Shown piece by piece: positions 1,111 through 29,399 of a DNA stretch of 64,000 nt. Numbering within the stretch: the first letter of the stretch is position 1; each line of letters starts with the position of its first letter. The translations under genes and the position numbers were made by a program. The DNA is from Kolteria novifilia (GTDB lineage Bacteria; Planctomycetota; Planctomycetia; Kolteriales; Kolteriaceae), in the NCBI RefSeq assembly GCF_007748055.1, contig NZ_CP036279.1; one strand, given 5' to 3'. Under the pieces are notes generated by a model. That model was not told the DNA's origin. It was given only the letters and a program-made list of their open reading frames with translations, and did not search any database.

Positions 1111-2802
1111 TCACGGCTTGCCGGGTTGTCCTTGCTCCGATGAATCGGTCGACGAAGTCACCGACTCGAAGGTCGGCCCAATGCGAAGTCGATCGATCAA
1201 CAGCCGATCGTGCGGCTCGGTATGCTGCCCCATGCGAAAGCCGAGGAAGGTCGACTTCGGGACTCCCTTGGCATCTTCTCGGCGAATGACTTCGACATCG
1301 GCGGGTTGGCGATCTCCCGGACGAGGGTTCATCCAAAGCTCGAGTCGGTCGGGCTCACCGTCGCGCGATCGCCGCAGGGCCGCGACAAACCAATAGGTCG
1401 CCCCATCCTGGGCTCGCTCTTGAACCACTTCGTGTCCGTGGTGTAGTCGAGCGAAGATCCAGCCGAAGCGAATGCCGACGTTGGGGGCGCGACTGTGACT
1501 CGAATCCATCGTGGCGGCATCGTCGAGCCAGAACGAGAAGAAGTCGTCCCGGTCGAGCCCGTCGTAGCGAGCAAGAAAACTGATGTAGAGGTCGTCGTCG
1601 CCAACCGTCGGCAGTTTGCGAACGATGCGGTTCGCGATCGACGGATAGGCCGGATCCCGGCCGTGCAGCGCCACCGCGGTTTGTCCGGCCGTTTCTCCCG
1701 GCAGCGTCAGCCCTGGGGCGACGACTTCGGCGAAGGGAACGTCGGCGCGCCAAGCGTGGTCGCCAAACCCTTCGCCCCCGTGGCTGCCGTCGAAGTCTCC
1801 CACTTGGTAGTCGAAGTCATCGGCAATGAGCTTCGGTGGAGCCGCCACCCGCGCATCCGTCTCCGCGAGGGCATCGGTCGATTCGTCGAGTTTTCCCGGG
1901 CGGGTGACAAGCGTCCCTTTCCGGACGGCCGCGATTTGTTCCAAGGTCGGCAGATCGCCAAAAACGTTACTCGCGGCGGCAAACCGGGCATCAACCGCAA
2001 AGTCGCGCGGAAACCGACCCGCTTGCTGGGCGGTCAGTCGCGTCTGGCCAGGCTCCCGCGTGGACCGGACGTCGGCGACGCCATCAAAGACGTGAACATC
2101 GGTCTCGCCGGCGGCATCGACCACCAGGCCGACCTGCCTCAAGTTCCCGACGATGTTGGTGCTCGGGGTGACGACTTCTATCGGATCGGCGGATTCGGGG
2201 ATCCGGGCGTGAATGTTGCCCGCGTGCAGCGCGATCTTACGGGGCGAGGACAACTCGAGCCGACAGGGCCCTTGCAGCGTCATCGCCACGCCGTTGTCGA
2301 ACGCGAGCCGAGCCGTGCCACTTTCGAGCGCGACGGTCTCGCCCTGGCGGAAGCGATCGCCGTAGGAGGGGACGTTTCCGTCCGGCCATGTCGCGTCCTC
2401 GGTGTCAACCAGCGACGCGATGAGCCTTGACGGCTCGGGGCCCGCCGGTTGCCGGTTCGCTCCACGCCACGGCGACCATAGGACGATGGTGAGAAGCAGG
2501 ATGGCGGCGGCGACGAACGTAGTCATCGTCGCGAGGCGTCGCTTCGAATGCCGCGTTGCCGGTTCCGTGGCACTCGCGGGGGAGAGGGTATCGGCAAGTG
2601 CCGACATCTCGGGCGACTCCTCGACGTAGAGTTCGCTGGAGAGCATCGCCTCCAAGTTGACGTGGTAGACGTACTCGCGAATCAACTCGGGATCGCGTCT
2701 CAGGTGTGCGGCGAGTCGTTCCTCGTCCTCGCCACGAAGTGACCCCTCCACGGCGTGGCGAAGCAGGGTCTCCCAATCTCGTCTCGCGTCGGAGTCGCTC
2801 AT
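1111..2802 (-). CDS. FecR-like anti-sigma factor with one TM helix and a C-terminal LamG-like jellyroll domain
   Basis: The ORF is 1111..3141; the plausible start is M114 (MSDSDARRDWETLL), which overlaps the sigma stop as ATGA. TM segment FVAAAILLLTIVLW. FecR-domain sequence: GETVALESGTARLAFDNGVAMTLQGPCRLELSS. Confidence 0.8.
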   Translation of the reverse strand: MSDSDARRDWETLLRHAVEGSLRGEDEERLAAHLRRDPELIREYVYHVNLEAMLSSELYVEESPEMSALADTLSPASATEPATRHSKRRLATMTTFVAAAILLLTIVLWSPWRGANRQPAGPEPSRLIASLVDTEDATWPDGNVPSYGDRFRQGETVALESGTARLAFDNGVAMTLQGPCRLELSSPRKIALHAGNIHARIPESADPIEVVTPSTNIVGNLRQVGLVVDAAGETDVHVFDGVADVRSTREPGQTRLTAQQAGRFPRDFAVDARFAAASNVFGDLPTLEQIAAVRKGTLVTRPGKLDESTDALAETDARVAAPPKLIADDFDYQVGDFDGSHGGEGFGDHAWRADVPFAEVVAPGLTLPGETAGQTAVALHGRDPAYPSIANRIVRKLPTVGDDDLYISFLARYDGLDRDDFFSFWLDDAATMDSSHSRAPNVGIRFGWIFARLHHGHEVVQERAQDGATYWFVAALRRSRDGEPDRLELWMNPRPGDRQPADVEVIRREDAKGVPKSTFLGFRMGQHTEPHDRLLIDRLRIGPTFESVTSSTDSSEQGQPGKP

Positions 2803-3341
2803 GTGTTTTCTCCCGTCGCGAGTCGGTGTTCGATGCACTCGAGCAGGCTCTTGCGGATTCGGTAGAGCGACATCGAGATCGCGTCGGCCGATCGTCCCAT
2901 GAGCTCCGCGATGCCGCTGACGGAGATGCCTCGGCTGTAGCGATGGTTGAGCAGGTCGCGGTGGTGGCCGGAGAGCTTCTCGATGCAGTCGCGTAGGGCC
3001 TTCGTGCGTCGTTCGGCCTGTTCGGCTTGTGCGACCGCTTCGTCGGCGATCGCCCCGACCAGATCGTCCTCGAATGGGACTTTCGCTTTGCCTCGTTCCT
3101 TCTTGAGGAAGGCCAGCGCCTGCAGATGGGCGATGCGGCAAGCCCAGGCCTTGAACGGTCGCTCGGGATCGTATTCCTCCCGTTTGCGCCAGAGCACCAT
3201 GTTGGTCTCTTGGACGATGTCGTCGACATCGCTCGGCCGGCGCACGATCGCGTGGACGATGCCTCGCAGCGCCGGTTGGGCGCTGACCAACTGCGCGAGG
3301 TAGCGTTCGTCACCGCGCTCGGAATGGTTCGTTTCGTGCAT
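2799..3341 (-). CDS. ECF (sigma-70 family, group 4) RNA polymerase sigma factor
   Basis: 180 aa with sigma-70 region 2 (DIVQETNMVLWRKREEYDPERPFKAWACRIAH) and region 4 (ISVSGIAELMGRSADAISMSLYRIRKSL). The stop overlaps the anti-sigma start by 4 bp. Confidence 0.85.
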   Translation of the reverse strand: MHETNHSERGDERYLAQLVSAQPALRGIVHAIVRRPSDVDDIVQETNMVLWRKREEYDPERPFKAWACRIAHLQALAFLKKERGKAKVPFEDDLVGAIADEAVAQAEQAERRTKALRDCIEKLSGHHRDLLNHRYSRGISVSGIAELMGRSADAISMSLYRIRKSLLECIEHRLATGENT

Positions 3342-3792
3342 GCGTTGGCTCGTGGTGCGAGTCGTGATGGTCGATCGAAAGCGATGCGGGGCGCTGGAGG
3401 TATTCGACCGACTCTACAAGAGGTTTGCCGAACTGGTTGAATCTAACGCGAAAATGCGAGAAATCGTTGAGAATCGGGGGAAGAGTGAGGGTCTTGGGGG
3501 CAAAAGGCGGCGATTTTCGCTGAGATCGCGCCGCGAATGGACAGTGTTCGGGCCGCGAGCGTCGCAAGAGGATCGTGGCGTCGATTAGGCGTCCGCGATG
3601 TCGGCGCTGGCGCCCCGATCGTATGCTCGGCGACGGTCCGATCAGGCGTGAACCGTTTGTGACTGAAATGGAAAGGAAGCCGGCGGGCGAGAAAGGAGTG
3701 TCAGCTCACGCCGGGCGGGGCGATACGCAAGACTTTCGTTCGCCTTTGATTCGCTGCCTCAAAGCATTCTGGGGAATGCCAGACTCGGCAAG

Positions 3793-3879
<87 letters not shown>

Positions 3880-4324
3880 GGACGTCTCGCTGAGAAGGAG
3901 ACGTTCGCAGCAACCTATTCTGGGGAAGGGGACCTATAGGGTCAAGAATGGGAACCGCACGAGATTGGTTCTCTCGGATCGAAAAGGTCTCATTGGACGG
4001 TCTGGCACGACTTCAACGACGTGGAGAAGTCGGCACGACGGGAGTGCCTCGAGGCGCGATGGGAAGAGAATTCCAGGCGTAGACCCGAGAAAAGACTCGA
4101 TCGTCCCCCGCGCCGAGTCTCGATTCGACGGCCGAGTGGAGCAGATGTTGAATTGCCGCCTGTGGACTGTTAGCATCAGGGAAAGCTCGGGAATTTCAGG
4201 GTGGCGAGTCGGGAGCGGTGCGCCGTTGCGCGGGAGCGTCCGCCAACTCGAAGTGACCCGACCTGCCTGCGGCATTCCTCAACGATTTCACAGCGCATTG
4301 AATCTTCGACACTGAGGTAAGCAC

Positions 4325-5701
4325 ATGTATCGCTTCATGGGACGTGGTGAGGCCGTTACCTGTTCCGGCGTCACGAGACGCGACTTTCTCCAGGTCGGCA
4401 TGCTGGGTTCGATCGGGCTGACGCTGCCTCAGTTTCTCGCGATGGAGGCCCAGGGCGCTGTCGCCAAGCCGGACGATGAGCGTTCGGCGATCATGATCTT
4501 CAACCTCGGCGCTCCCAGCCACCTCGACACGTGGGACATGAAGCCTGAAGCCCCCGAAGAGGTTCGCGGGCCCTTCAAGCCGATCGACACGTCGGCCTCG
4601 GCCTACCAAGTCAGCGAGATTCTCCCGCGAATGGCGAAGATCGCCGACAAAGTTTCCCTGGTTCGCTCCTGCTACCACACGGCTCCCGCGGTGCACGACA
4701 CCGGGCACCAGATGATGCAAACCGGGCGGCTCTTCTCCGGAGGGATCAATTCGCCGCACGTCGGCTGCGTGCTCGATTTTCTCTACGGGCCGAGGACTGA
4801 TCTCCCGACGCACATCGTGCTCCCCGAGCCGATGGGGCGCACGGGCGGCAATCTGCCGCATGGGCAAGATGCGGGTTTCCTGGGCAAAAGGCACGATCCG
4901 TTCGCGTTGATGTCCGATCCGTCGAAGCCGAACTTCCAGGTTCCCGACCTTTTGCCACCCAAGGAGATCGGGGACGTTCGGCTCAAGCGGCGTCGCAAGC
5001 TGCGTCAAGTCGTTGACGAAACGGTCCGCAATTTCGAGACCAGCGAAGAAGCGAAGCTGATGGATAGCAACTTTGCGTCGGCCTACCGCTTGATGACGTC
5101 CGAGCGGGCCCGCGCCGCGTTCGACCTCGCGCAGGAGCCTGAGTCGGTTCGGGATCGCTACGGCCGCAATCGATTCGGGCAGTGTTGCCTCCTCTCGCGC
5201 CGGCTCGTCGAGGCGGGCGTTCGCTTTGTCACCGTCAACACCTTCCTGACCGTCTTCAACGAGATCACGTGGGACATCCACGGATCGGCTCCCTTCACCT
5301 CGATCGAGGGGATGAAGGAGCAAGTCGCCCCGATGTACGATCAGGGTTATTCGGCGCTCATCGAGGACCTCTCGGAACGGGGTTTGCTCGAAAAGACGAT
5401 GGTGGCGTCCCTGGCGGAGTTCGGCCGAACTCCGAAGATCAATCCCGCCGGGGGACGTGACCATTGGCCTCAGTGTTGGACCGTCTCGTTCGCGGGCGGC
5501 GGCATCCAAGGGGGACGCGTTGTTGGCAAGTCCGACGAAATCGGCGGCTACCCCGTGGAACGACCCGTCGAGCCGGCGGAAGTCGTCGCGACCGTCTTCA
5601 AGAGCCTGGGCGTTGATCTCGAGACCCTGCTCCCCGGTCCCCAAGCCAGGCCATTTCCCGTCGTTGACTACGGCGTCCACGCCATCAACGAACTCTTTTG
5701 A
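4325..5701 (+). CDS. DUF1501 family protein (sulfatase-like, Tat signal)
   Basis: 458 aa with a twin-arginine motif (TRRDFLQVG). It shows the typical DUF1501 blocks (IMIFNLGAPSHLDTWD, GGRDHWP). The antisense 745-aa ORF 4196..6433 is an artefact. Confidence 0.9.
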   Translation: MYRFMGRGEAVTCSGVTRRDFLQVGMLGSIGLTLPQFLAMEAQGAVAKPDDERSAIMIFNLGAPSHLDTWDMKPEAPEEVRGPFKPIDTSASAYQVSEILPRMAKIADKVSLVRSCYHTAPAVHDTGHQMMQTGRLFSGGINSPHVGCVLDFLYGPRTDLPTHIVLPEPMGRTGGNLPHGQDAGFLGKRHDPFALMSDPSKPNFQVPDLLPPKEIGDVRLKRRRKLRQVVDETVRNFETSEEAKLMDSNFASAYRLMTSERARAAFDLAQEPESVRDRYGRNRFGQCCLLSRRLVEAGVRFVTVNTFLTVFNEITWDIHGSAPFTSIEGMKEQVAPMYDQGYSALIEDLSERGLLEKTMVASLAEFGRTPKINPAGGRDHWPQCWTVSFAGGGIQGGRVVGKSDEIGGYPVERPVEPAEVVATVFKSLGVDLETLLPGPQARPFPVVDYGVHAINELF

Positions 5702-5848
5702 GTACCCGTGGAATCGCTCCCACCCGCAAGGGTCGGTGGGGAACAAACGGGCCGCATGTCTCTTTAGGCCCCGTTCTCGATCGACCGGCGCGAGATCGCT
5801 CCGGGGATGGGACGGCGATCGCATGTCATGTCGGAGAATTGAACGTCG

Positions 5849-7234
5849 ATGAGCCAAGCGGGCCGAGTCGGTAACGGAGAGGCTGTCGTTCTTGTTGCCG
5901 ATGACGACGCCGTGACAAGGCGCTTGCTCTGTCGACACCTTGAGGCGGCAGGCTACCAGGTCATCGAGGCCGCCGACGGCGCCGAGGCGACCGCCCATTT
6001 GACCACCGATCTCGCGGTCGCCCTCATCGATCTTCAGATGCCCAGGGTTTCGGGGCTCGACTGTCTCCGCCACGCGCAACGCCACTGTCCCGATCTCCCC
6101 GTCCTCGTCATTTCCCAGTTCAGCGAGGTTCGCGACGCGGTGGCGGCGATGAAGGAAGGAGCCTTCGACTACGTCACCAAGCCGGTCGATCCCGAGGAAC
6201 TCCTGGTGCATGTCGCTCAAGCGCGCCGTTCGGCGAGGCTCACGCAGGAGAACCGCCAACTCAAGGAAGTCGTCGGTGGGTCGATGCCGGCGGAGATCAT
6301 CGGCGGCGACTCGGCCGCGTCCCGAACGCTCTTCGAACAGATCGAGAAAATCGTCCCCATCGACGCGACGGTCCTGATCACGGGCGAGAGTGGGACCGGA
6401 AAGACGACCATCGCCCGTTTCATCCATCAGCATGGCCCGCGAGGATCACAGCCCTTCGTGGTGGTCAACTGTGGAGCGTTGCCACGGGAACTGATCGAGG
6501 CGGAACTCTTCGGCCACGTCCGCGGGGCCTTCACCGGAGCGGTCGCCGATCGACCCGGACGGGCCGACATGGCCGATGGCGGCACGCTCTTTCTCGACGA
6601 GATTGGCGATCTGCCGCTCGAATTGCAGCCGAAACTGCTGGCTTTTCTCCAGGATCGGATCGTCGAGCCGATTGGAGGAGGCAAACGGCGCAAGGTCGAT
6701 GTTCGGGTGATCGCCGCGACCCATCAAGATCTCGAATCGAAAGTCGCCGCGGGTGCGTTTCGGCAGGATCTCTATTTCAGGCTCAATGTGTTGCCGATCA
6801 CTGTTCCGCCGCTCCGAGAAAGACCTGAAGACGTGCCTCTCTTATGCGATCATATCCTGCGTCGCATCGCCGGGAAGCGGGGACAGGATCCGTTCGTTCT
6901 TCGCGAGGGAGCGAGGGAAAAGCTGGTCCAGCATCGTTGGCCCGGGAACGTGCGCGAACTTGAAAACGTCCTGGAGCGAGCGACGGCGTTCGCGACCGAC
7001 CGGGAGATCGACGTCGACGACTTGGGCTTCGCGGCCGACGTCGTGTCAGCCCCGCCAGGGGAGGGAGGCCGTCTCGCGGGGCGAACACTGGAAGAGATCG
7101 AGCGACAAGCGATTGTCGAAACGCTCGAGTGGGCCGAGGGGAACAAAAAGCAGGCCGCTCGAACGCTCGGAATCGACGAGAAGAGCATCTACAACAAGAT
7201 GAAACGCTTGGGGATCTCTTGGAACCGAGGATGA
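5849..7234 (+). CDS. Sigma-54-dependent response regulator (NtrC family: receiver + AAA+ + Fis-type HTH)
   Basis: Receiver domain (VVLVADDDAVTRRLL ... ALIDLQMP). AAA+ motifs GESGTGKT, GAFTGA and ELFGH. C-terminal HTH QAARTLGIDEKSIYNKMKRLG. RBS GGAG lies 12 nt upstream of the start. Confidence 0.9.
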   Translation: MSQAGRVGNGEAVVLVADDDAVTRRLLCRHLEAAGYQVIEAADGAEATAHLTTDLAVALIDLQMPRVSGLDCLRHAQRHCPDLPVLVISQFSEVRDAVAAMKEGAFDYVTKPVDPEELLVHVAQARRSARLTQENRQLKEVVGGSMPAEIIGGDSAASRTLFEQIEKIVPIDATVLITGESGTGKTTIARFIHQHGPRGSQPFVVVNCGALPRELIEAELFGHVRGAFTGAVADRPGRADMADGGTLFLDEIGDLPLELQPKLLAFLQDRIVEPIGGGKRRKVDVRVIAATHQDLESKVAAGAFRQDLYFRLNVLPITVPPLRERPEDVPLLCDHILRRIAGKRGQDPFVLREGAREKLVQHRWPGNVRELENVLERATAFATDREIDVDDLGFAADVVSAPPGEGGRLAGRTLEEIERQAIVETLEWAEGNKKQAARTLGIDEKSIYNKMKRLGISWNRG

Positions 7235-8778
7235 GACCGAGGGCACGGGTTCGGCTCCGAAGCGAGCAGAGACACGGTGGCCGGCGCCTGCGAGGACTCG
7301 CGGCGGGACCAGTGCTCGTCGCATGGTGCGCGCTGCTTGCGCTGGGGACGAAAGCGCTTGGCCAAACCGCCGAGCCCGCGAAGCTTCCGGTCGACTTTCG
7401 GACGCGGGTTGAACCGATTCTCCAAGCGCATTGCGTCTCCTGTCATGGCCCGAGCGAAGCCAAGGGCGGACTCCGGCTCGATCGACGGGCCTACGCGGCG
7501 CGCGGGGGAGACTCCGGCAAGTCGTTGCTGAAGATGCCGCTTGACGAGAACGAGCTGATTCGCCGAGTCTCCGCGGCTGACCGGAACATCATCATGCCGC
7601 CCGAGGGGCCGAAGCTCTCCCAAGTGCAGATCGCGACGCTGGAGGCCTGGATCGCGGAAGGGGCGCCTTGGCCGACGTCGACAAGCGACGCGCCGCAGTC
7701 GATTCACGCCGACAAGGACAAGGGGTTCTGGAAGACTTTTGACGCGTTCGTGCCCTTTTTTGAGCACCATCTTCGGCTGCCGCTGGCGATCGTGCTCCCC
7801 TTTCTCATCCTCTACTGGATCGCCGTCCGGACCCGTCGTCGACAAAAGGCCACGACAAACGAAGCTCCCTCGTCGCTTTCCAGAACCATCGCGCACTTCG
7901 GTCCGTCGCATCTCTGGATCGTGGTGCTGTTGATGACGCTCCTGACAACGACGACTTATCTGGCCGAATTGCACGAGCGACTTGCGACCCAGGAGAAGAG
8001 GCTCAAGCAGCGCCGCCTCGCGACAAGCCCGACGGCCGAAGATGTCGTGGGCGACGAGGGGAAGCCGATTCGTCCTCATCACCCGAAACGTCTCGGCGGG
8101 ACGTACTATCGGGGCAACGACGAGCGCAACGAGAAACTCTTCAACAACGGCTTCTACCGAACCGCGACCTTTCACCTTTCGCTTCTCGATCAAGACAAGC
8201 GCAAGCTCGGCCTCGGAGACCGAATCGAACCGGGGCAGCGGCTCTTCGTTCGCGTGGAGATCGAGCGTTCGCCCTTCGCGACTCCGGCGCTCTTTTCCAA
8301 GGAGGTGATGGAGCAGGCCTATTTGACCGACTTGCCCGAGGGGACGGAGATCGCCGACGCGACGATCGCTCCGGTTCCGTTTCGCACGGCGGTCGAGGGT
8401 GAGCGTTGGTTGGCCGACTATCCGATCGACCTTCCCGCGTCGGGCGACGCCGACCCGCTAAAGGGGCTGATTCACGTTTACAAAGGCAACGCCGACACGC
8501 AGATCTCGGGGACGCATCATTACGGGGTTGAGTACGAACTGGTCGTCACCCAGGGGAAGCTCGACGCGGCGTCGGAACTCTGGATGGGACCGACGTACGT
8601 CACCGGGAACGTGATGATTCCGGTCCCTGGGAAGATGTCGATCGAGGAGTGGTTCGACTGGCGTCCCCTCCCCGAGATTCCCCACGAGCAGACGAAGGAT
8701 CCGAAGCTTCTGGGCGTTCCCGAGCACCTCGGCGCCGACTACGACCCCTCCGCGCAAGAGAAAAGCCCTCCCGAGTAG
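7231..8778 (+). CDS. Membrane protein with an N-terminal PSCyt1-type cytochrome c (CxxCH) domain, two TM helices and a C-terminal domain of unknown function
   Basis: The start chosen is M35 of ORF 7129..8778 (MRPRARV...), which overlaps the regulator stop as ATGA. Signal/TM segment VLVAWCALLALGTKALG. Heme motif ILQAHCVSCHGPSEAKGGLRLD. TM helices LPLAIVLPFLILYWIAV and HLWIVVLLMTLLTTTTYL. Confidence 0.7.
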   Translation: MRPRARVRLRSEQRHGGRRLRGLAAGPVLVAWCALLALGTKALGQTAEPAKLPVDFRTRVEPILQAHCVSCHGPSEAKGGLRLDRRAYAARGGDSGKSLLKMPLDENELIRRVSAADRNIIMPPEGPKLSQVQIATLEAWIAEGAPWPTSTSDAPQSIHADKDKGFWKTFDAFVPFFEHHLRLPLAIVLPFLILYWIAVRTRRRQKATTNEAPSSLSRTIAHFGPSHLWIVVLLMTLLTTTTYLAELHERLATQEKRLKQRRLATSPTAEDVVGDEGKPIRPHHPKRLGGTYYRGNDERNEKLFNNGFYRTATFHLSLLDQDKRKLGLGDRIEPGQRLFVRVEIERSPFATPALFSKEVMEQAYLTDLPEGTEIADATIAPVPFRTAVEGERWLADYPIDLPASGDADPLKGLIHVYKGNADTQISGTHHYGVEYELVVTQGKLDAASELWMGPTYVTGNVMIPVPGKMSIEEWFDWRPLPEIPHEQTKDPKLLGVPEHLGADYDPSAQEKSPPE

Positions 8779-8818
8779 GGGAGGGCTTGGTGGTTGTTCG
8801 AGGAAGAAGCTGGCAATC

Positions 8819-10030
8819 TTAGTCGATGTCGTCTTCGTTGATGGGGGCTTGCCGGTTGCTTGTACTCATTCGCCCACCATCGGGACTCATGATTTGTGCG
8901 AACACCGTTCCAGCAATGGAGTCGTTGATGAACCGCGTGGATCCATCGCAGAAAACGAAGTGAACTCCGCCCGGATGCAGGCTATTGGGATAGGGATGTT
9001 CGCCTTCATTGACTCCACTGGTGCTGCCGTTAATGCCACCTTCGATTCCAGTCGTGCCGCTATCTACGGGAGGCGCTAGAGATCCCTTGCTGTTGGCGGC
9101 AGTGATGTCCAGCGTTGAGTTGGCGGTACCACTAGACGTGACGTTGATCGCAATAGGGTTCACGAAGAATGATGTGACGTTGGGATGAGGACAGGCCCAA
9201 TTCTTGACAAAATTTGTCAGGCCATCGGGTCCTGTGTTGACGTTCTCGGACAGCATCACCGTTGTCGACGTACCATCCCTAACGGTGGACAGCGTGTGAC
9301 GGAAGTTTGCCTGAGGTGTCGACGTATCTTCACTCGTTGTGGAAAGAAACATCAGCCCTGATCGCTGCAAGTCTCGCATGGCTTCGATGCCACCTGCCAT
9401 TGAGGTGTCGAGTGTGCCAGCACCTGCTGCCGTGTGGTAGGGAGTTGGGTAGTTGTAGCCGCCGTTGACGACGTAGCTAAGGTTTCCTTCTCCAGCCAAT
9501 GCGCTAATGTCTTCCGGACAGACCAGAACCTTCATCGCATTGGAAGCAAGCTCGGCGTGGTGGACCGTTTGGGCGGAGGTTACCACGTTGTTATTGTAAG
9601 CACCGAGCCCCGCGGCCGCTGAAAAGTCCCATTGATCGAAAATGTCAGAACGATCAATGAACGGCAGAAGTGGTACTACCCACGAATACTTCATGCCTGT
9701 CGTTTGGGAGGACAGATCCTGTGCTGATCCACCGATGGTCGCGGCCGAAAGGTCCGAGGCGGCACCATTGGCGGTCCAGTTGCCCACACCACTCGGATTC
9801 CAATATCCACTCGGGGGGAACTTGTTGTTCTGCGAAACGAACGCGAGCATCGCGGTGCCGACGTTACGCATGTTGTTGAGACACTGAGCACGGCGGGCGG
9901 CGCGGCGGGCGCCCATGATGCCTGGCAGAATCAGCGAGGCCAAGATCCCGATGATGCTGATGACCACGAGTAGCTCGACGAGGGTGAACCCCCGGCGGCG
10001 TGCACGATGCAACTGACGATGCTGCTTCAT
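8819..10030 (-). CDS. DUF1559 / H-X9-DG protein with prepilin-type N-terminal cleavage/methylation motif (pseudopilin-like)
   Basis: Start at M36 of ORF 8819..10135 ([36 protein letters not shown]). C-terminal [16 protein letters not shown] matches the H-X9-DG motif. Confidence 0.85.
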
Positions 10031-10557
10031 CGTTTCCCCTTCCCATGAGATGCGTTTTCTTCCCTGGCAGTTGGCACCATGCCGGCTCGACCTTCGATGA
10101 ATCCCGCGTCTCGAATCGTCCGTTCGTTCAACCACCGCGGCGGTGTCGCCTTTGTCGATCTTCCCTGGGTACCATGCTCACGTTTGCGTGGGCATGCGGT
10201 GAAGACCTACCTTGCAAATGGCGAAGTACCCTCTGGCAATGGTTGGCGACGAGCTTGCCAATCCGAGACTGGTCCGAATGGTCTGCCACGTTCCTGCCTG
10301 TCGGATCTACCTAGAGTAGCAACAGCCATTCCAAAAAGCTGCCGCCACCCAAACCACCATTCTCCCGAAACGGGCGAGCGACTGCAACCTATTTGTAGCA
10401 AGCAGGATAGGGCGATCTTGCCGGAGTCGAACGTGCGTCAATCGGCACCGAGATGGGCGGATGACTCTGGTTCGAGCTCGATGGGAGGCTTCTCGACTGG
10501 AAATTCTCCCGTTGGTCCTCATGCGGCTGGAAAATTTCCTGCCGGTTGGAAGCCTGG

Positions 10558-15139: not shown

Positions 15140-16552
15140 CTAAGCGAAGATCTCGTTCACGATGCGGCCGTGGACGTCGGTGAGGCGGAAGTCGCGGCCG
15201 GCGTGGCGGTAGGTGAGCCGTTCGTGATCGAGCCCGAGGAGCCAGAGCAGGGTGGCGTGAAGGTCGTGCATGTGGACCTTGTCCTCAATGGCGTAGTAGC
15301 CGTACTCGTCGGTCTTGCCGTGGACGTGGCCTTTCTTCACGCCGGCGCCGGCGAGCCACATCGTGAAACCCTGCGGGCAGTGATCGCGACCATTGGAGCC
15401 TTGGGCCAAGGGGGTTCGGCCGAACTCACCACCCCAAAGGACCAGGGTGTCGTCGAGCAGGCCGCGCCGTTTGAGATCCTCGAGCAATCCGCCGATCGGC
15501 TTGTCGACGCTCAGGGCGTTCTTGCGGTGACCCGACTCGAGGTTGCCGTGCTGGTCCCAAACCATCTTCGTCGAGACCTGGATGTAGCGGACACCCGACT
15601 CCGCGAAACGGCGGGCGAGGAGGCACTGGCGACCGTATTCGGCGGTCTCCTTTTGGTCGATGCCGTAGAGAGCGAGCGTCTCCTTCGACTCGCCACTCAT
15701 GTCGAGGACGTCGGGAGCGGTCGTCTGCATGCGGAAGGCGAGCTCGTAGGACTCGATGACCGCATCGAGCCGGCTATCCTCCTTGGCCCGCTCGGCGTGG
15801 CTGCGGTTGAGCGACTGGATCAAATCGAGCTGCTTGCGCTGCTGAGCGCGGGAAAGAGCTTTGTTGACGACGTTGCGGATCCCCGCTTGAGCGACCGGCG
15901 TGCCGGCGCTCCCAATCGCGGTGCCCTGGTACGCGGCCGGGAGAAAGGCGGTGCCGTAGTTCTGCACGCCGCCGTGGCTGGTGGGAGGGCTGATGGTGAT
16001 GAAACCGGGAAGGTCCTGGTTCTCGGTGCCGAGCCCGTAGGTGATCCACGAGCCGACCGAGGGACGCGTGAAGATATCCGAGCCGGTGTGGAGGTTCAGG
16101 ACCGCTTGGCCGTGGGACTGCCCCTCGGTGTGCATGCTGTTGATCAGGCACAAGTCATCGATGTGCTTGACGGTGTGCGGAAAGAGATCCGAGGCCCAAA
16201 TGCCGCTTTCACCGTGTCGCTTGAAGGTCCAGGGTGACTTCATGACCTTGCTGGTGGCGCCGACGCTGGCGAGTTCGACCTGCTTGAAGGAGGCGTTCTT
16301 GCCATGTTCTTTTTCGAGAAGCGGTTTGTAGTCGAAGCTGTCGACCTGACTCGGCCCGCCGTGCATGAAGAGGAAGATGATTCGCTTGGCTCGCGGAGGA
16401 TGGTGCGGGGCCTTCTCCGCCAAGGGCGATGTGGCCGCGGCGCCGAAGCTCCGTTGGGAGAGGAGATCGGCCAGCGCCAAGTAACCGAAACCGCAGCCCG
16501 CCCGTTTGAGGAGATTGCGGCGGGACAGGGGAGTTTCCTGGAGCGGATTCAT
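15140..16552 (-). CDS. DUF1501 family protein (Tat signal)
   Basis: 470 aa. Tat motif [11 protein letters not shown]. Blocks [15 protein letters not shown] and NGRDHCP. Confidence 0.9.
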
Positions 16553-16624: not shown

Positions 16625-19162
16625 TTACTCCACGAAGCGAAACTCGCTCGAGGAGAAGAGGGCCTGGCAGAAGGTGGTCCACCCTTCACGGCGGACCGCG
16701 TCGTCGGTCTTCTTGGGATGCTCCGGATCGGCCCACTCCGCAAGATAAGCTAGGCAGCGGCCTTCCTCGTCCTCGGTCGGCAGTCGGTTGAGGACCCGTT
16801 CATATGCTTCGCGGACTCGCGACCGCTCGTCGATCGCCCCATTCGCGAGCAGCGACTCGGCGAGCGACTCCGAGAGCGACGCGACCCACGGACTGTTGAC
16901 CATGAAGAGAGCCTGGGTCACGACGGTGGTCGATCCCCGCTTGCCGGTGGAGACGTTCGGGTTGGCGACATCGAAGGTCTCGAGGGCCTCCGGCAAGCCG
17001 TTGCGGATGATCGGGAGGTAGACGCTCCGGCGGCGGTGCTTCGTAAAACTGGGGAGCTTCGCGTTGTTGTCAAGGGCGACTTCCTTGAAGCCGTCGATGG
17101 TCGAGCCGTTCATCGTCAGGTCGAGCTCGCCGCCTAGTGCCAACAAGGTGTCACGCACCGCTTCGGCATCGAGCCGGCGGCGGTTGGCCCGGCCGAAGAA
17201 CCGATTGTCGGGATCGAGTTCGATGCAGTCTCCCGGGGCTTCGGTGCTCAGGGCGTAGGTACGGCTGAGCATGATCTCTCGGATGAGGCTCTTGACCGAC
17301 CAGCCCTCTTCCACGAAACGGGTCGCGAGGTAGTCGAGTAGTTCCGGGTGGCTGGGCCGTTCGCCGAGTTCGCCGAAATTGTCGACGGTGCGAACCAGTC
17401 CCGAGCCGAAGAGGTGATGCCAGATCCGATTGGCCATCACGCGGGCGGTCAGCGGATTCTCCTCGCTGGCGAGCCATTCGGCGAGTTCCCGGCGACCGCT
17501 CTGATGACTGGGGAGCACCGGCGTCGCGTTGCACGCGACTTCGACGAAGCCTCGCGGAACGACCTCGCCTCGGCGTTTGTGATTGCCGCGAATGCAGAGG
17601 GCGATGTCCTCGATGTTGTCCTCGTCGCGAACCGCCATCGCGAGCGGCGGCATGGGCGTCTTGGTCTTGTTGACTTCAGCGAGAGAGGATTCGAGCTTCT
17701 TCAGTTGAGCGGTCGCCTCGGCGATCTTCTCATCGAGTGTGGGGGACTTTTTCTTCTTCGCGGCGGTCGTCGTTGGGGCGTTTTCGGTCGACTCTTGGTC
17801 CTTTCCGGACGCTTTTTGGTCCGTTTTCGTCTCGGAAGCGGCCTTTTTCGCCTGATCTTGGAGCTTTTTGAGCGATTTCTTGACCTTGCTGACCTTCTTG
17901 CTCAGATCCTTGATCTTCTTGACGTCGGCCTTGGCGAGTTCGTACTGTTGGTCGCCCTCGGGGCCGAGGGGCCGGAGCATCCAACCCGAGACGTATTGAT
18001 TGTTCTGCTTGATGCCGTCGATCGTCCGGGTGCTGCGAAGGATCCCCGCCAGTGCGTAGTAGTCGTTCATCGCGATCGGGTCGAACTTGTGATCGTGGCA
18101 GCGGGCACAAGAGACCGTCAGCCCGAGGATCGACTTGCTGATGGTCTCGATCTGTTCGTCGACCGCGTCCATCCGAAGCTTTTCTTTGTCGCGTTCGGCG
18201 GCGACCTTCGGTCCGAGGACCAGGTAGCCGGTCGCGATCACCTTTTCGTCGCGCTCCTCGGGCGTCTGGGCGTCGAGCAAGTCGCCGGCAATCTGCTCGA
18301 GGATGAACTGATCGTAGGGCTTGTCGTCGTTGAAGGCGTCGACCACATAGTCGCGGTAACGCCAGGCGTTGAAATAAGTTAGGTTCTGGTCGAGGCCCGT
18401 CGAATCGGCGTAGCGGGCGATGTCCAACCAGTGGCGGCCCCAGCGTTCTCCGAAGCGGGGCGAGGCCATCAAGCGGTCAATCGCCCGAGCGAACGCGTCG
18501 GGCTTGTCGTCCTCGAGAAACGCTCGGGTCTCCGTCGGCGTCGGGGGAAGGCCGGTCAGTGCGTAGCTGGCCCGACGCAGCAGGCCGCGACGATCGGTCT
18601 CTTGGGAAGGGGCGACGCCCTCGGCTTCGAGCTTCGCCAGGATATGGCGGTCGATGGTGCCGCGCGGCCAGGCCTTGTTCTTCGTGCTGGGCGGGGCGGT
18701 TCGCTGGGGATGTTGAAAGGCCCAGAACTTGCGGCCTTGCTCGACATCGATGCCCGAACGGGGACGTTTGTGGGCGAATTTTCCCTTGCGCGGGTCGAGG
18801 GCACCCTTGGCGATCCACTTCTCGAAGTCGGCGATGACTTGTTCGGGAAGTTTCTCGGTCGGGGGCATTTCGAACGATTCGTGACGAAGCGCGTCGAGCA
18901 GTAGGCTCTCTTTTGGCTTTCCGGGAACCACCGCGGGCCCTGAGTCGCCGCCAGTGAGCATCGGTTCGGCCGCGTCGAGGAGCAACCCGCCCATCACGGT
19001 CTTGGAGTCGGCCGCGTGGCACGAGTAGCAGTGCTCGGCGAGAACCGGTCGGATCTTCTTCTCGAAGAACTCGACATCGGCGGGATTCATGTCGGCGGCG
19101 AGCGAGGGCAGGGCTCCGAAGAGCAAAAACAAGCTCGCGACGATGGGCAGGCCAGGCCTCAT
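16625..19162 (-). CDS. PSCyt1/PSCyt2/PSD1 (DUF1549/DUF1553) family protein with a Lys-rich coiled-coil insert
   Basis: 845 aa. Signal peptide MRPGLPIVASLFLLFGALPSLAA. Heme motif EHCYSCHA. It sits 72 bp upstream of the DUF1501 gene, the usual pairing. Confidence 0.9.
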   Translation of the reverse strand: MRPGLPIVASLFLLFGALPSLAADMNPADVEFFEKKIRPVLAEHCYSCHAADSKTVMGGLLLDAAEPMLTGGDSGPAVVPGKPKESLLLDALRHESFEMPPTEKLPEQVIADFEKWIAKGALDPRKGKFAHKRPRSGIDVEQGRKFWAFQHPQRTAPPSTKNKAWPRGTIDRHILAKLEAEGVAPSQETDRRGLLRRASYALTGLPPTPTETRAFLEDDKPDAFARAIDRLMASPRFGERWGRHWLDIARYADSTGLDQNLTYFNAWRYRDYVVDAFNDDKPYDQFILEQIAGDLLDAQTPEERDEKVIATGYLVLGPKVAAERDKEKLRMDAVDEQIETISKSILGLTVSCARCHDHKFDPIAMNDYYALAGILRSTRTIDGIKQNNQYVSGWMLRPLGPEGDQQYELAKADVKKIKDLSKKVSKVKKSLKKLQDQAKKAASETKTDQKASGKDQESTENAPTTTAAKKKKSPTLDEKIAEATAQLKKLESSLAEVNKTKTPMPPLAMAVRDEDNIEDIALCIRGNHKRRGEVVPRGFVEVACNATPVLPSHQSGRRELAEWLASEENPLTARVMANRIWHHLFGSGLVRTVDNFGELGERPSHPELLDYLATRFVEEGWSVKSLIREIMLSRTYALSTEAPGDCIELDPDNRFFGRANRRRLDAEAVRDTLLALGGELDLTMNGSTIDGFKEVALDNNAKLPSFTKHRRRSVYLPIIRNGLPEALETFDVANPNVSTGKRGSTTVVTQALFMVNSPWVASLSESLAESLLANGAIDERSRVREAYERVLNRLPTEDEEGRCLAYLAEWADPEHPKKTDDAVRREGWTTFCQALFSSSEFRFVE

Positions 19163-22062: not shown

Positions 22063-22497
22063 CTATTTCTTCACGCGTTCCCAGACGTGGACCCAACTGC
22101 CGGTGCCGGATTTGGTGCTGAACGTCTTGGGGCGGGGCTTTCCGAGAGCGGAGAAGGCGACGCGCGTTTGATCGCCGTTGCTTTCGTAGATCCCCAAAAA
22201 CGTCTTACCCTTGTCCCGACCACTGGAGTGAGTGATGTCGATCGACTTTGGTTTCGTGGTCGGATCGAGTTTCTGCGTCCCGGTAACGGTTCCCATGTCG
22301 GCAAGTGTGGCCGTGTAATGATTGCCCTTGATGACGAGCTTGCCACCTTTGAGCTGCTCTTCGTCCAGCGGCTTGCCGTCCATTTCGCCCCCAACCAGAC
22401 GCCAGGTGCCTTGAAAAGCCTGTTCGTCCGACTCTTCCGCGAACGCTTGCGTACCGAGAGCCACCATCAACCCCAGCGCCACGAATAAAGACCGCAT
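22063..22497 (-). CDS. TIGR03067-like small lipocalin-type secreted protein (planctomycete family)
   Basis: Start at M19 (MRSLFVALGLMVALGTQAFA), with GGAGGT 5 nt upstream. The motif FQGTWRLVGGEMDGKPL is typical of the family. Confidence 0.7.
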   Translation of the reverse strand: MRSLFVALGLMVALGTQAFAEESDEQAFQGTWRLVGGEMDGKPLDEEQLKGGKLVIKGNHYTATLADMGTVTGTQKLDPTTKPKSIDITHSSGRDKGKTFLGIYESNGDQTRVAFSALGKPRPKTFSTKSGTGSWVHVWERVKK

Positions 22498-22650
22498 GAT
22501 GTACCTCCGAGATGGACTCCGACGCTTGGCCGGAAGAAGCGACCAGATCACTGAACCCGACGTGTGTGCTCAAGAGATGTCGAGTATAAGCGATGCTGGC
22601 GACGAAATCCGGCTTTGTATCGCGGGATGTTCCTCGTCGCGAATGAGTAG

Positions 22651-25467: not shown

Positions 25468-26889
25468 TTACGCGATGATGTCGTGAGCGACGTGGCCGTG
25501 CACATCGGTGAGGCGGAAGTCGCGACCGGAGTAGCGATAGGTCAGCCGTTCGTGGTCGATGCCCAGCAGGTGGAGGAGCGTCGCATGCAAGTCGTGGACG
25601 TGGACGCGTTTGTCGATCGCGTTCATGCCGAGTTCGTCGGTCGCGCCGTGGGTATAGCCTCCCTTAACGCCGCCGCCGGCGAGGAACATCGAAAAACCGG
25701 TGTGATGGTGATCGCGTCCCGCCTTGGTCATGTCCTTCTTCTTGTCGAGTTGAGCGTACGGCGTTCGACCGAACTCGCCGCCCCAGACGACAAGCGTGTC
25801 CTCGAGTAGGCCGCGCGTCTTTAGATCGGTCAGCAGCGCCGCGGTCGCTTGGTCGCTGTCGGCGCAGAGTCGCTCGTGGGACTTGTTGTTGTTGCTGTGC
25901 GTGTCCCAGGGCTGCTTGCCTTTCTTGGTGACGTAGTAGACCTGAATGAAGCGGACCCCACGCTCGGCCAGGCGACGAGCCATCAGGCAGCTTTGCCCGA
26001 AGGGGCTCTTGCCGTACATCTCGCGAATCGGCTCGGGCTCGCGGTGGACGTCGAAGGCCTCGGTCGCCTCGCTTTGCATCGCGAAGGCGAGCTCCATCGC
26101 CCGGATCTGCGCGTCGAGGGCGGCGTCCTGGGGGCGCTGGGCGGCGTGCAGTCGGTTGAGCGAGTTGATTAGCTCGACCTGATCGCCCAACTGGGCACGC
26201 GTGAGCCGGGGATGACGGATGTTGGCGACGAGTCGGTCGACCGCCAACTCGTTGGTGTCGAGCGACATGCCCTGGTGCTCGCCGGGCAGGAAGGCGCTCG
26301 ACCAAAGTTGCGGGCCCACCACCGGCCGGCCGGGACAGAGGACGACGAACGACGGCAGGTTTTTGTTCTCGTTGCCGAGACCGTAGGAGAGCCACGACCC
26401 GAGGCTCGGGCGAATGGGCTGCTGGTTGCCCGAATTCATCATCAAGAGGCCCGGCTCGTGGTTGGGCACGTCGGTATGCATCGAGCGGAGGACGCAGAGA
26501 TCATCGGCGCACTTGGCGAGGTTTGGGAAAAGCTCGCTCATGACGACGCCGCCTTGCCCGTGCGCCTTGAACTTGAAGGGGGAGGGCATGAAGCCGGCAC
26601 CACGCGGCTTGCGGCCCTTGTCGTCCTTGGAAGGCTTTTGGCCGGCGTACTTCCGCAGCGCCGGCTTGGGGTCGAACGTGTCGACGTGCGAGGGAGCCCC
26701 GTTCATGAAGAGGAAGATGACCCGCTTGGCTTTCGGCGGAAAGTGGGGGATGCTCGCGAGGTTCGCGGGAGTCTGGTTCCCCAGCAGACCCGCGGCCTGG
26801 AGCGTTCCCGCCAGACCGAGCATACCGAAACCGGCGCCGGCTTGGTGGAGGAACTCACGGCGAGTGCGGGGCGATTGCGGGATATCCAT
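25468..26889 (-). CDS. DUF1501 family protein (Tat signal)
   Basis: Start at M56 of ORF 25468..27054 (MDIPQSPRTRREFLHQAG). Blocks FLFMNGAPSHVDTFD and AGRDHH. Confidence 0.9.
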   Translation of the reverse strand: MDIPQSPRTRREFLHQAGAGFGMLGLAGTLQAAGLLGNQTPANLASIPHFPPKAKRVIFLFMNGAPSHVDTFDPKPALRKYAGQKPSKDDKGRKPRGAGFMPSPFKFKAHGQGGVVMSELFPNLAKCADDLCVLRSMHTDVPNHEPGLLMMNSGNQQPIRPSLGSWLSYGLGNENKNLPSFVVLCPGRPVVGPQLWSSAFLPGEHQGMSLDTNELAVDRLVANIRHPRLTRAQLGDQVELINSLNRLHAAQRPQDAALDAQIRAMELAFAMQSEATEAFDVHREPEPIREMYGKSPFGQSCLMARRLAERGVRFIQVYYVTKKGKQPWDTHSNNNKSHERLCADSDQATAALLTDLKTRGLLEDTLVVWGGEFGRTPYAQLDKKKDMTKAGRDHHHTGFSMFLAGGGVKGGYTHGATDELGMNAIDKRVHVHDLHATLLHLLGIDHERLTYRYSGRDFRLTDVHGHVAHDIIA

Positions 26890-26900
26890 TGTGACGACCT

Positions 26901-29051
26901 TTAGTCGAGGATGATCATCTCGTTGGTGGCGAGCAGGGCCTGGGCCAAGTTGCGCCACCGCTGGGGCCGAGCGGAAACGTCCGGCCCGAGGAAGGCCTCG
27001 GCAAGCGTTCGTTCGGCCGACGACGGTGAGCGGCCGAGGAGGAGCTGGTAGCAACGCTCGATCCGCGCCGAGTCACTGGAACCGACTTCGGCATCGAGCC
27101 GGGCGAGCAGCGCATCGCCGAGTTCCACCATGAAGGGACTGTTGATCGCGAAGAGCTTCTGCAGCGGCGTGGTGGTGTGGGGGCGCAGCGCGCTGTGGGC
27201 GTTGGGATCGGGAAAGTCGAACTTGGCCAGCAGCGGGTGGAGTTGAAAGCGGCTGATGCGGCTATAAACCGTTCGCCGTGGCGTCGCGAGGTCGTCCGGT
27301 TCGATCGACGTTCCGCCGAGGTCTTCGTTGAGGAGCCCGGTGACGCTCAAGAGGGAATCACGCCACTGTTCGACGTCGAGCCGGCGCCGGTTCATGTGGC
27401 CCAGGAGCTTGTTGCCGGGGTCGGCTTTCAGGGTCTCGGGGGCGCCCTGGCTGCTCTGGCGATAGGTCGCCGAGAGGGCGATTTCGCGGTGGAGCCACTT
27501 GAGCGACCAGCCGTGGTCCATGAATCGAACCGCCAGGTCGTCGAGTAGATCGGGGTGTGTTGGCCGCGAACCGAGCATGCCGAAGTTGCTCGGCGTGCCG
27601 ACAAGGGGTTGGCCGAAGTGCCGGGCCCAGACGCGATTGACGATGACCCGCGCGGTCAGCGGGTTGTCGCGTTCGACGATCGCGTCGGCGAGTTGGGCTC
27701 GGCCGCTGCCGTTGGTGAGTGGCCGGGGCGAGGGAGAGAGCACTTGCAAGAAGGAGCGTTCGACGACCGGCCCCTTGTTCTTGATGTCGCCGCGAATGAA
27801 GACGTTTAGGTCGACCGGCGTTCGGTCGCGAACGACGTGAATCGACTCCTCCGGGTTCTCCGCGTTGCCGTCTTTCTTCTTCTTGTGGTTGTCGTCGAGC
27901 GGGCGGTTATACATCGCGGTGCTGGCGAAGACGCCGGCTAACGCGTAGTAGTCCTCGGTCGCGATCGGGTCGTACTTGTGGTCGTGACAGCGAGCACACG
28001 CGACCGTCAGCCCCAGCAAGCCACGCGAGACAACATCGACGCGATCCTCCCATTCCTCGGCCCTGACCGCGGGATTGCCGCGACCGTAGTACTTCGGACC
28101 GAGTCCGAGGAAACCGAGCGCCGCGACATGCTCCTGGCTCTCCGGCTCGAAGGTATCGGACGCCAACTGAAGGCGGAGGAAGCGATCGTAGGGCATGTCC
28201 TGGTTGAGGGCGGCGATGAGCCAGTCGCGATAGAGGTACGCGTTGGGGTAGAAGAGTGACTTGTTGTTGCCGACGATGTGAGCTTGATCCTCGGCGTAGC
28301 GGGCGACGTCCATCCAGACGCGAGCCCAACGCTCCCCATAGTGCGGCGACGCGAGTAGTCGGTCGACGAGCCGTTCGTAGGCGTCGGAAGCCTCGTCGTC
28401 GACGAAGGCGATGACCTCTTCCGGGGTCGGGGGCAGGCCGGTCAAGTCGAAGCTGAGTCGGCGAATGAGCGTGCGCCGGTCGGCCTCGGCCGCGGGCGTG
28501 AGGCCCTCGTTCTCCAGTCGCGCGAGGACGAAGCCGTCGAGCGGTCGCCTGATCCAGTCGTTTCGTTTGGTGGCGGACGGCACGTGACGCGTGGGAGGTT
28601 GGAACGACCAGAACTCGCGCGCTTTGGCGAAGTCGATCGTCTTGGGTTTGGGCGGAGGGGCCTTGCCGTCGCGGGGATCGTCGGCGCCCATCTCGATCCA
28701 ACGTTCAAAGTCGGCGATCACCTTCTCGGGAAGTTTCTGATCGGGCGGCATCTCGAAGGTTTCGTGACGAATCGCCGCGAGGATCAGGCTCGCCTCTTTG
28801 TCCTTGGGAACGACGGCAGGCCCGGAATCGCCCCCGGTGCGCATGCCCGAGCGAGTGTCGATCGAGAGGCCGCCGTTGGTTTCACCCTCCTTGGCGGAGT
28901 GGCACTCGGCGCAGTATTGGAGCAGGACCGGGCGGATCTTCCGTTCGAAGAACTCGATTCGTCCTTCAGGAGCGGCCGCGGCGACTAATCGCGCGAGAGA
29001 AAGCACGCACAAGGCAGCGAGTAGGACACGATGCGAGGGCGGCAACGCCAT
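26901..29051 (-). CDS. PSCyt1/PSCyt2/PSD1 (DUF1549/DUF1553) family protein
   Basis: Start at M90 of ORF 26901..29318 (MALPPSHRVLLAALCVLSLARLVAAAAP). Heme motif QYCAECHSAKEG. It sits 11 bp upstream of the DUF1501 gene. Confidence 0.9.
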   Translation of the reverse strand: MALPPSHRVLLAALCVLSLARLVAAAAPEGRIEFFERKIRPVLLQYCAECHSAKEGETNGGLSIDTRSGMRTGGDSGPAVVPKDKEASLILAAIRHETFEMPPDQKLPEKVIADFERWIEMGADDPRDGKAPPPKPKTIDFAKAREFWSFQPPTRHVPSATKRNDWIRRPLDGFVLARLENEGLTPAAEADRRTLIRRLSFDLTGLPPTPEEVIAFVDDEASDAYERLVDRLLASPHYGERWARVWMDVARYAEDQAHIVGNNKSLFYPNAYLYRDWLIAALNQDMPYDRFLRLQLASDTFEPESQEHVAALGFLGLGPKYYGRGNPAVRAEEWEDRVDVVSRGLLGLTVACARCHDHKYDPIATEDYYALAGVFASTAMYNRPLDDNHKKKKDGNAENPEESIHVVRDRTPVDLNVFIRGDIKNKGPVVERSFLQVLSPSPRPLTNGSGRAQLADAIVERDNPLTARVIVNRVWARHFGQPLVGTPSNFGMLGSRPTHPDLLDDLAVRFMDHGWSLKWLHREIALSATYRQSSQGAPETLKADPGNKLLGHMNRRRLDVEQWRDSLLSVTGLLNEDLGGTSIEPDDLATPRRTVYSRISRFQLHPLLAKFDFPDPNAHSALRPHTTTPLQKLFAINSPFMVELGDALLARLDAEVGSSDSARIERCYQLLLGRSPSSAERTLAEAFLGPDVSARPQRWRNLAQALLATNEMIILD

Positions 29052-29399
29052 GGGGTATCTCGTTAGGTGGGGCGCACGCAGCGCGAAGTTGGCGGGTCCA
29101 GAGGCTCCCCAAGTATAACGCACGGCCAGAGGGACGCAAGGGAGGAACCCGTCGAAGGGGACGGTGAGGAGGAGTCTCTCTCCAGTATCCCGCAGGGGGC
29201 GTTTCGACCGCGAGATAATCCGGAAACGACCAGCCAACGTGGTGAGGGCAGGAACCAGACGGTACACTCGGCTTGAACGAAAGAGAGAGGTCTTCCTGCG
29301 GCGGGTTGGGGGTATCACCGCGCGGACTGACTTGGGCCGATACGTGCGGTGACGCGATCATCGCGCCGGCTTCCGTGGTCGAGAAGGGGATGTTTAGCG

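Follow-up and report, generated by a model that had tools for sequence, protein, structure and literature searches.

The locus described here occupies positions 4325-8778 of a 64-kb stretch of DNA from Kolteria novifilia (contig NZ_CP036279.1); the whole stretch is referred to below as the window. Three genes lie at the locus, all on the plus strand. The first (4325-5701) encodes a DUF1501 protein of 458 aa (Pfam PF07394, E 2.8e-105), the second (5849-7234) an NtrC-type sigma-54 response regulator of 461 aa, and the third (7231-8778) a predicted membrane-anchored periplasmic mono-haem cytochrome of 515 aa when read from the ATG at 7231. A preliminary description prepared from the DNA alone had named them as a DUF1501 protein, an NtrC-like regulator and a protein combining a PSCyt1 domain, two transmembrane (TM) helices and a C-terminal region of about 250 aa. 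These domain calls were supported by Pfam searches, motif inspection and hydropathy analysis. All three proteins have database entries of 100% identity.

The three genes had been presented as a single translationally coupled operon. This was correct for the second junction, where the regulator and cytochrome genes share an ATGA overlap at 7231-7234 (assuming ATG 7231), but not for the first. The DUF1501 stop codon (5701) and the regulator ATG (5849) are separated by 147 nt, so only the regulator/cytochrome junction can be coupled in this way. No structured RNA was found in the 147-nt spacer (z -0.54; no Rfam match). The database copy of the cytochrome protein (NCBI/UniRef) is 488 aa long, implying a GTG start at 7312. 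ATG 7231 is favoured here as the true start because the residues it adds include the Arg-rich n-region found in homologues ahead of the hydrophobic signal segment, and because two homologous loci show the same kind of 4-nt overlap with a signalling gene upstream (L001, ATGA, and L071, GTGA; loci are referred to by L numbers throughout).

The cytochrome protein comprises, in order, a signal peptide, a PSCyt1 haem-c domain (residues 68-126, 7432-7608; Pfam E 2.9e-15), a TM hairpin (7771-7968), a helical stalk, an immunoglobulin (Ig)-like beta-sandwich (residues 288-454, 8092-8592) and a conserved tail (8593-8730). PSCyt1 was the only Pfam match, and the C-terminal region of approximately 250 aa had none. 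The features of a class I-like c-type cytochrome (CxxCH haem-attachment motif, distal ligand and export signal) were all present, the haem motif C68-x-x-C71-H72 and M122 do not vary within the family, and the protein is predicted from these features to bind haem c. The two hydrophobic segments (TM1, residues ~181-200; TM2, ~229-246) are separated by a basic loop of ~28 aa, RTRRRQK...GPSH. In the AlphaFold model (mean predicted local distance difference test score, pLDDT, 79.6) a small helical cytochrome domain is followed by a helical hairpin that coincides with these segments, a helical stalk, and the beta-sandwich, for which pLDDT was mostly >90. The sandwich carries the invariant motif YYRGN(D/C)ERN..LFN.G.Y.T and belongs to an undescribed family; no Pfam or PDB relative of it was found. 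The tail, EWFDxRP(I/L)PEIxxExxxDPKLLG, was modelled at low confidence (pLDDT 50-70) yet is among the most conserved stretches in the family alignment, with W474, P481, D490, P491, L493, L494 and G495 invariant. Both globular domains are predicted to be periplasmic, with only the ~28-residue loop in the cytoplasm, because attachment of haem c has to take place in the periplasm and because a strongly basic loop should stay inside (positive-inside rule).

The preliminary description had raised the possibility that this is a known full-length PSCyt/PSD1 protein with a recent frameshift. A frameshifted or truncated PSD1 protein was ruled out. BLASTP against the PSCyt1-PSCyt2-PSD1 protein of the window aligned residues 29-147 only, Pfam returned PSCyt1 only, and the C-terminal domain is itself conserved. 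The profile search with this domain that the preliminary description had proposed was run against 1.84 billion representatives and returned 448 clusters at 50% identity, in all of which the sandwich was C-terminal in a protein of 400-580 aa.

Full-length homologues of the cytochrome protein numbered 68, at 30-42% identity. Relatives were present in at least 184 GTDB species genomes, mostly of Pirellulales and Planctomycetales, with some from Phycisphaerae and some records labelled Verrucomicrobiales. Among 100 representatives the N-terminal module was PSCyt1 in 78 and YHS in 15, and none was fused to a signalling domain (a "Rosetta stone" fusion). In the YHS variants (~15%; for example P0070, P0071, P0072, P0074 and P0076), a Cys-rich YHS/TRASH-like module with the pattern CPV...CC..C precedes the same hairpin and sandwich. 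Since YHS stands in for PSCyt1 in some members, the hairpin and sandwich are the constant part of the family and the periplasmic cofactor module is the variable part.

Neighbour clustering identified no universal neighbour of the cytochrome family. Synteny was seen at the level of clades only, with a small secreted protein gene placed divergently and ModA-like ATP-binding cassette (ABC) transporter or radical-SAM/GSDH genes placed convergently. The secreted protein, of 144-146 aa and without a Pfam match, divergently adjoins the cytochrome gene in 13 Pirellulales-type loci (L003 7374-7814, L006 7406-7840 and 11 others), and its copies are mutually 55-79% identical. The window contains a paralogue of this protein (22063-22551, minus strand; 33-36% identical), 14 kb away and unlinked to the locus. 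The three-gene ModA-like (SBP_bac_11) ABC transporter lies convergently downstream in L003 (9664-11837) and in ~12-15 related loci of one clade. The transporter and the YHS variants jointly hint at a metal connection, although the arrangement may be plain synteny.

Conservation of the trio was assessed in 89 other loci containing family members, comprising nine retrieved by exact protein and 80 species loci. No sigma-54 AAA+ gene was found within 10 kb of the family members in any of them (tblastn with the window regulator), so that the search for co-occurrence of this architecture with NtrC-like genes, also proposed earlier, was negative. Conversely, no cytochrome gene was found downstream of the regulator orthologues of L090 (66% identity) and L091 (62%). 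A conserved three-gene operon was ruled out on these two results, the NtrC-cytochrome pairing being unique to Kolteria among the loci searched. The best reading of the comparisons is that the locus consists of two separately evolving units, DUF1501 with the regulator, and the cytochrome gene.

Two-component genes were present beside the cytochrome gene in a minority of loci. In L001, L002 and L013 a HAMP-HisKA-HATPase kinase gene lies directly upstream, with an ATGA overlap noted in L001. In L024 a stand-alone HisKA+HATPase_c core of 239 aa (1228-1947), lacking any TM or sensor domain, is encoded next to the cytochrome gene, with a divergent gene for a 3-keto-disaccharide hydrolase on its other, upstream side. 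L071, L074 and L089 encode a kinase that has a pair of adjacent TM helices but neither a periplasmic nor a sensor domain, followed by an OmpR-type regulator whose gene overlaps the cytochrome gene (GTGA in L071). The type of partner therefore differs by lineage: a kinase (L001, L024), a kinase and OmpR-type regulator (L071), or an NtrC-type regulator (Kolteria).

A census was made with receiver and kinase hidden Markov models (HMMs) built from the retrieved loci. All open reading frames (ORFs) of the 80 species loci (1.21 Mb) were scanned. Of the twelve two-component genes found, eight (in 5 loci) lie directly before the cytochrome gene and only four elsewhere. At a background of ~4 per 1,100 genes, and with ~65 loci having enough upstream sequence, ~0.24 upstream two-component neighbours were expected; 5 linked loci from 3 independent lineages were observed (Poisson P ~0.002 even when only lineages are counted). 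Signalling-linked members, Kolteria included, fell in four separate places on an unbootstrapped neighbour-joining tree. The cytochrome family is repeatedly the last gene of two-component operons, well above chance.

The Kolteria regulator has the full set of NtrC-family domains: Response_reg (E 1.8e-24), Sigma54_activat (E 2.4e-67), AAA_lid_14 and HTH_8 (E 6.3e-12). The receiver, as read from the translation, has an acidic pocket (DDD, residues 18-20), the phospho-acceptor D61, S89 and K111. The AAA+ domain carries Walker A (GESGTGK) at residue 179, GAFTGA at 226 and Walker B (DEIG) at 250, and the C-terminal helix-turn-helix (HTH) is of Fis type. The protein thus conforms to the NtrC family in its receiver, AAA+ motifs and DNA-binding domain. 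The database protein has an identical start and carries the source name ZraR. This name is not supported because the regulator scored under every NCBIfam equivalog cut-off (ntrC, 401 vs 558.6 bits; AtoC, 392.6 vs 714; ZraR, 341.5 vs 760). The earlier statement that no histidine kinase lies nearby was upheld across the 64-kb window, where neither a HisKA/HATPase_c gene nor a second receiver was found (Pfam searches of all large ORFs; tblastn using four kinases and the regulator's receiver as queries). The regulator resembles NtrC, ZraR and AtoC in its receiver, its AAA+ domain with GAFTGA, its Fis-type HTH and its intact phospho-acceptor residues. It differs from them in falling under the equivalog thresholds and in lacking an adjacent kinase, which generic NtrC genes in other phyla mostly have directly upstream.

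The DUF1501 protein matched the family profile over its full length (positions 2-390 of 390; 353 bits), and its N-terminus is of the twin-arginine type (TRRDFLQVG). It shared 73-78% identity with more than 120 representatives of clusters, nearly all of them exactly 458 aa long, whereas its paralogue in the window was only 27% identical. No sequence relative was found in the PDB, and the subfamily is probably single-copy. Beside DUF1501 at the locus there is no PSCyt2 (DUF1549) or PSD1 (DUF1553) gene, the flanks being a tRNA and a divergent extracytoplasmic function (ECF) sigma gene upstream and the regulator downstream.

The conserved feature of this part of the locus is the adjacency of DUF1501 and the regulator, which the preliminary description had not foreseen when it placed DUF1501 in a coupled unit. 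In L090 and L091 a DUF1501 gene (74% identical) lies directly upstream of the regulator orthologue on the same strand, and the flanking genes differ. Four further pairs appear to be present on contigs of 3916, 9081, 9669 and 19368 bp, their co-location being deduced from the equal contig size and source of both protein records. A fifth size-matched pair (2065 bp) was spurious and was dropped. No kinase directly adjoins the regulator orthologue in L090 or L091, the two orthologous loci read; in L090 a kinase gene lies ~2.7 kb from DUF1501 on the opposite strand, and DUF1559 genes follow the regulator orthologue, as one follows the cytochrome gene in Kolteria. A metagenome scan with the regulator returned almost entirely generic NtrC genes and serves as a negative control, not as an orthologue census. 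These genes (40-46% identity) mostly had a kinase directly upstream and never a DUF1501 gene.

The search for -24/-12 sites that had been proposed was at chance level across the window (23 matches found, 18.5 expected), and yielded one weak candidate, TGGGACGGCGATCGCA, at 5808-5823 on the plus strand, 25 nt before the regulator ATG. This site fits 9/11 specified positions with GG and GC kept, and may be a promoter of the regulator. A better site, GGGCACGTCGCTTGCA, occupies the equivalent position in the DUF1501-regulator spacer of L090, and none was found in the corresponding spacer of L091. In the L091 spacer (6815-7000) a near-perfect palindrome, GCTGGGTCA-N4-TGACCCAGC, occurs twice. No convincing -24/-12 site was found upstream of DUF1501 in any locus (best 6-7/11 positions); a sigma-70-like TTGAAT-17-TAGCAT is located upstream of the Kolteria gene at 4145-4176.

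The reading preferred here is that the cytochrome is an accessory periplasmic input subunit acting through an unlinked kinase that phosphorylates the regulator. It is held tentatively, at somewhat less than an even chance. Under this proposal DUF1501 would be a Tat-exported (twin-arginine translocation) enzyme of the alkaline-phosphatase/sulfatase-like kind, a member of a near-invariant subfamily that stands beside the regulator and is uncoupled from it. The regulator would be a canonical phosphorylation-dependent sigma-54 activator served by a kinase whose gene lies elsewhere in the Kolteria genome; kinases and regulators are commonly unlinked in Planctomycetota. A member of a phylum-wide gene family would have been joined, only in Kolteria, to the 3' end of the regulator transcription unit through the 4-nt overlap. 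Its product would provide redox or ligand input to a membrane histidine kinase, by way of the TM hairpin or the periplasmic domains, and would make no direct contact with the regulator. Co-translation would keep the levels of sensor and regulator matched. We infer both the co-transcription and the whole of this signalling role.

Several observations weigh against this proposal. An operon with a kinase or regulator was found for the family, as judged by the 4-nt overlaps in the window, L001 and L071 and by the census, yet for only ~8% of members. Approximately 90% have no adjoining signalling gene, so signalling need not be the core function of the family. The linked kinases are unrelated in type, with 24-28% identity between their cores, which is unlike a specific co-evolving sensor-kinase pair and fits equally well with a target captured by different regulators. 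The NtrC-cytochrome pairing has a sample size of one, Kolteria itself, and a start at GTG 7312 would replace the ATGA overlap with a 77-nt gap. Finally, DUF1501 orthologues (74-76% identity) occur without the regulator in L172, L173 and L174-176, where they are followed by a Bax1-I gene (L172), by nothing (L173) or by a Big_2-PSCyt2-PSD1 gene (L174-176).

The main rival is that the cytochrome is a co-regulated output: an ordinary periplasmic electron-transfer or metal protein with no part in signalling, whose gene sits, in a few lineages, behind two-component genes so that its expression follows an autoregulated operon. This is possible but is considered rather doubtful. It accounts well for the solitary position of most family members and for the unrelated types of the linked regulators and kinases. 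The exchange of haem c for YHS is what would be expected of a redox- or metal-handling protein, and the candidate sigma-54-type promoters before the regulator in the window and L090 would drive both genes. It fits less well with the 4-nt overlap, since targets usually have their own promoter instead, and with the two linked kinases that have no sensing domain of their own (TM helices only in L071; the core only in L024). These leave vacant an input role that an extracytoplasmic partner would fill.

A further explanation, which is unlikely though not by a wide measure, places the function in the DUF1501-regulator pair. The regulator would control the periplasmic DUF1501 enzyme, or respond to its substrate or product, and the cytochrome gene would be incidental. 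The adjacency in L090, L091 and the four additional contigs despite differing flanks argues for such a pair, as does the unusual conservation of both proteins. Against it, the site before DUF1501 is sigma-70-like and a convincing -24/-12 site is lacking there in every locus, the orthologues of L172-L176 stand without the regulator, and the adjacency could be synteny inherited among related lineages. This explanation is not exclusive of the others, and the confidence attached to the various readings is not meant to sum to one.

Chance juxtaposition of three unrelated same-strand genes, with the overlap arising from compact spacing or a mis-chosen start codon, is judged quite improbable. It draws on the single occurrence of the trio, on the 488-aa database copy whose implied start removes the overlap, and on the generally weak operon structure of Planctomycetota, but is contradicted by the enrichment of two-component genes directly upstream of the family, by the independent origins of this linkage on the tree and by the conservation of the DUF1501-regulator pair. 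Least likely is the arrangement put forward in the preliminary description, a membrane haem sensor feeding the orphan NtrC regulator, if taken as direct action without a kinase (for example by sequestering or releasing it at the membrane): the ATGA overlap, the lack of a kinase in 64 kb and the lack of one directly beside the regulator in L090 and L091 speak for it, but the loop of ~28 residues is the only part of the cytochrome predicted to be cytoplasmic, the receiver keeps all phospho-acceptor residues and so looks kinase-dependent, the family is not paired with a sigma-54 regulator in any of the 89 other loci, and a kinase is present where the family is linked to signalling genes. Because both globular domains are predicted to be periplasmic, the cytochrome could not feed the NtrC receiver directly without a kinase.

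The accessory-subunit reading can also be extended to the family as a whole. In this broader form, (PSCyt1 or YHS)-hairpin-sandwich proteins would form a new class of periplasmic redox/metal co-sensors across Planctomycetota, able to plug into different kinases, and the Kolteria member, with an unlinked kinase, would control an orphan sigma-54 activator tied to a near-invariant DUF1501. The extended form is regarded as improbable.

Extracytoplasmic accessory proteins encoded downstream of two-component genes include YycH/YycI with WalRK, LpqB with MtrAB and ZraP with ZraSR. The signalling-linked cytochromes resemble these in being membrane-anchored extracytoplasmic proteins whose tightly coupled gene closes a two-component operon, with two of the linked kinases sensor-less. 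They differ in having no sequence or fold relationship to them, in carrying a haem or YHS cofactor domain, and in that most family members are unlinked to signalling. A co-sensor role would therefore be analogous to that of YycH/YycI with WalK, or LpqB with MtrB, in logic and not in sequence.

The kinases of L001 (6136-8004), L002 (6103-7962) and L013 (7848-9791) contain a periplasmic domain of ~195 aa with a conserved CLTCH and a sub-threshold Tll0287-like match (E 0.004), and are probably haem-c Cache sensor kinases. A recent paper describes the Tll0287/DUF3365 (sCache_heme) family as haem-c Cache sensors (PMC12889525). Periplasmic covalent c-type haem in a signalling setting is common to that family and the present one, and the CLTCH motif and Tll0287-like match of the three kinases are a further point of contact. 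Unlike these sensors, the window protein has a class-I-cytochrome-like PSCyt1, no Cache fold and no transmitter fusion. FoxE, a dihaem c-type cytochrome and putative iron oxidase of Rhodobacter ferrooxidans SW2 (PDB 5mab), matched in the cytochrome domain only. It is soluble and, unlike the Kolteria cytochrome, has neither a TM hairpin nor a beta-sandwich.

DUF1501 / PSCyt1-PSCyt2-PSD1 modules of Planctomycetes and Verrucomicrobia, including DUF1501 genes without a PSCyt/PSD1 partner, were already described by Kamneva et al. 2012 (PMC3542564). The present locus shares with them a DUF1501 family member with a twin-arginine N-terminus and a PSCyt1 haem-c domain. Two canonical modules are present in the window, as had been stated earlier: PSCyt1-PSCyt2-PSD1 at 16625-19162 with DUF1501 at 15140-16552, and PSCyt1-PSCyt2-PSD1 at 26901-29318 with DUF1501 at 25468-27054. 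The Kolteria DUF1501 differs from those modules in having no PSCyt2/PSD1 neighbour and in the much stronger conservation of its subfamily (73-78% identity across genomes; only 27% to the paralogue in the window). The cytochrome protein differs in lacking PSCyt2 and PSD1, in place of which it has a TM hairpin and an unrelated beta-sandwich. New are the (PSCyt1 or YHS)-hairpin-sandwich family and the novel domain at the C-terminus of its members, the statistical association of this family with two-component operons, and the conserved DUF1501-regulator adjacency. Literature searches found no paper on the hairpin-sandwich family, on its two-component tie or on the adjacency.

The upstream edge of the locus is formed by a tRNA-Ser(GGA) gene (3792-3879, minus strand; ARAGORN, Rfam tRNA 55.6 bits), which lies in a ~1-kb spacer between DUF1501 and a divergent ECF sigma gene (2799-3341, minus strand; Pfam and NCBIfam TIGR02989). 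The latter is part of a divergent ECF sigma / anti-sigma-like pair. Downstream, a convergent DUF1559 / N-terminal-methylation (pseudopilin-like) gene was identified by Pfam at 8819-10135 (minus strand). A terminator scan placed a G+C-rich hairpin of 10 pairs at 8763-8788 (no strand assigned), over the cytochrome stop codon and between the two convergent genes. It is likely to be a bidirectional terminator marking the end of the transcription unit; terminator-like hairpins in the region were not above shuffled controls (7 found, 5.7 expected).

Elsewhere in the window, the sole other signalling genes seen were two tandem Ser/Thr protein kinase genes of ~760 aa each (33984-36278 and 36542-38827, plus strand) and a gene for an HDOD-domain protein (53476-54942, minus strand). 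An Eco57I-like / N6 DNA methylase ORF (49183-50904, plus strand) has a third-position G+C content (GC3) of 0.57 against ~0.75-0.84 in its neighbours, and is flanked by multicopper-oxidase genes at 45709-48225 and 52337-53239. It looks like inserted foreign DNA, which may have divided a copper-oxidase region.

Among the gene families of Planctomycetota and Verrucomicrobia, those of the DUF1501 and PSCyt-domain proteins rank with the most expanded. In 2012 both were singled out for functional study (PMC3542564), and literature searches found no paper characterising the function of either. A near-invariant DUF1501 subfamily tied to one sigma-54 regulator is genetically easier to approach than dozens of paralogous modules. 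The cytochrome family, which is compact, has a new periplasmic domain and recurs in two-component operons, offers a second testable lead. If the co-sensor idea is false, the hairpin-sandwich family is still an unannotated domain meriting a Pfam entry. If it is true, a cofactor-bearing type of accessory sensor would be added to bacterial signalling, and, were the broad co-sensor class also real, the DUF1501 and planctomycete-cytochrome families would gain a first entry point for functional work.

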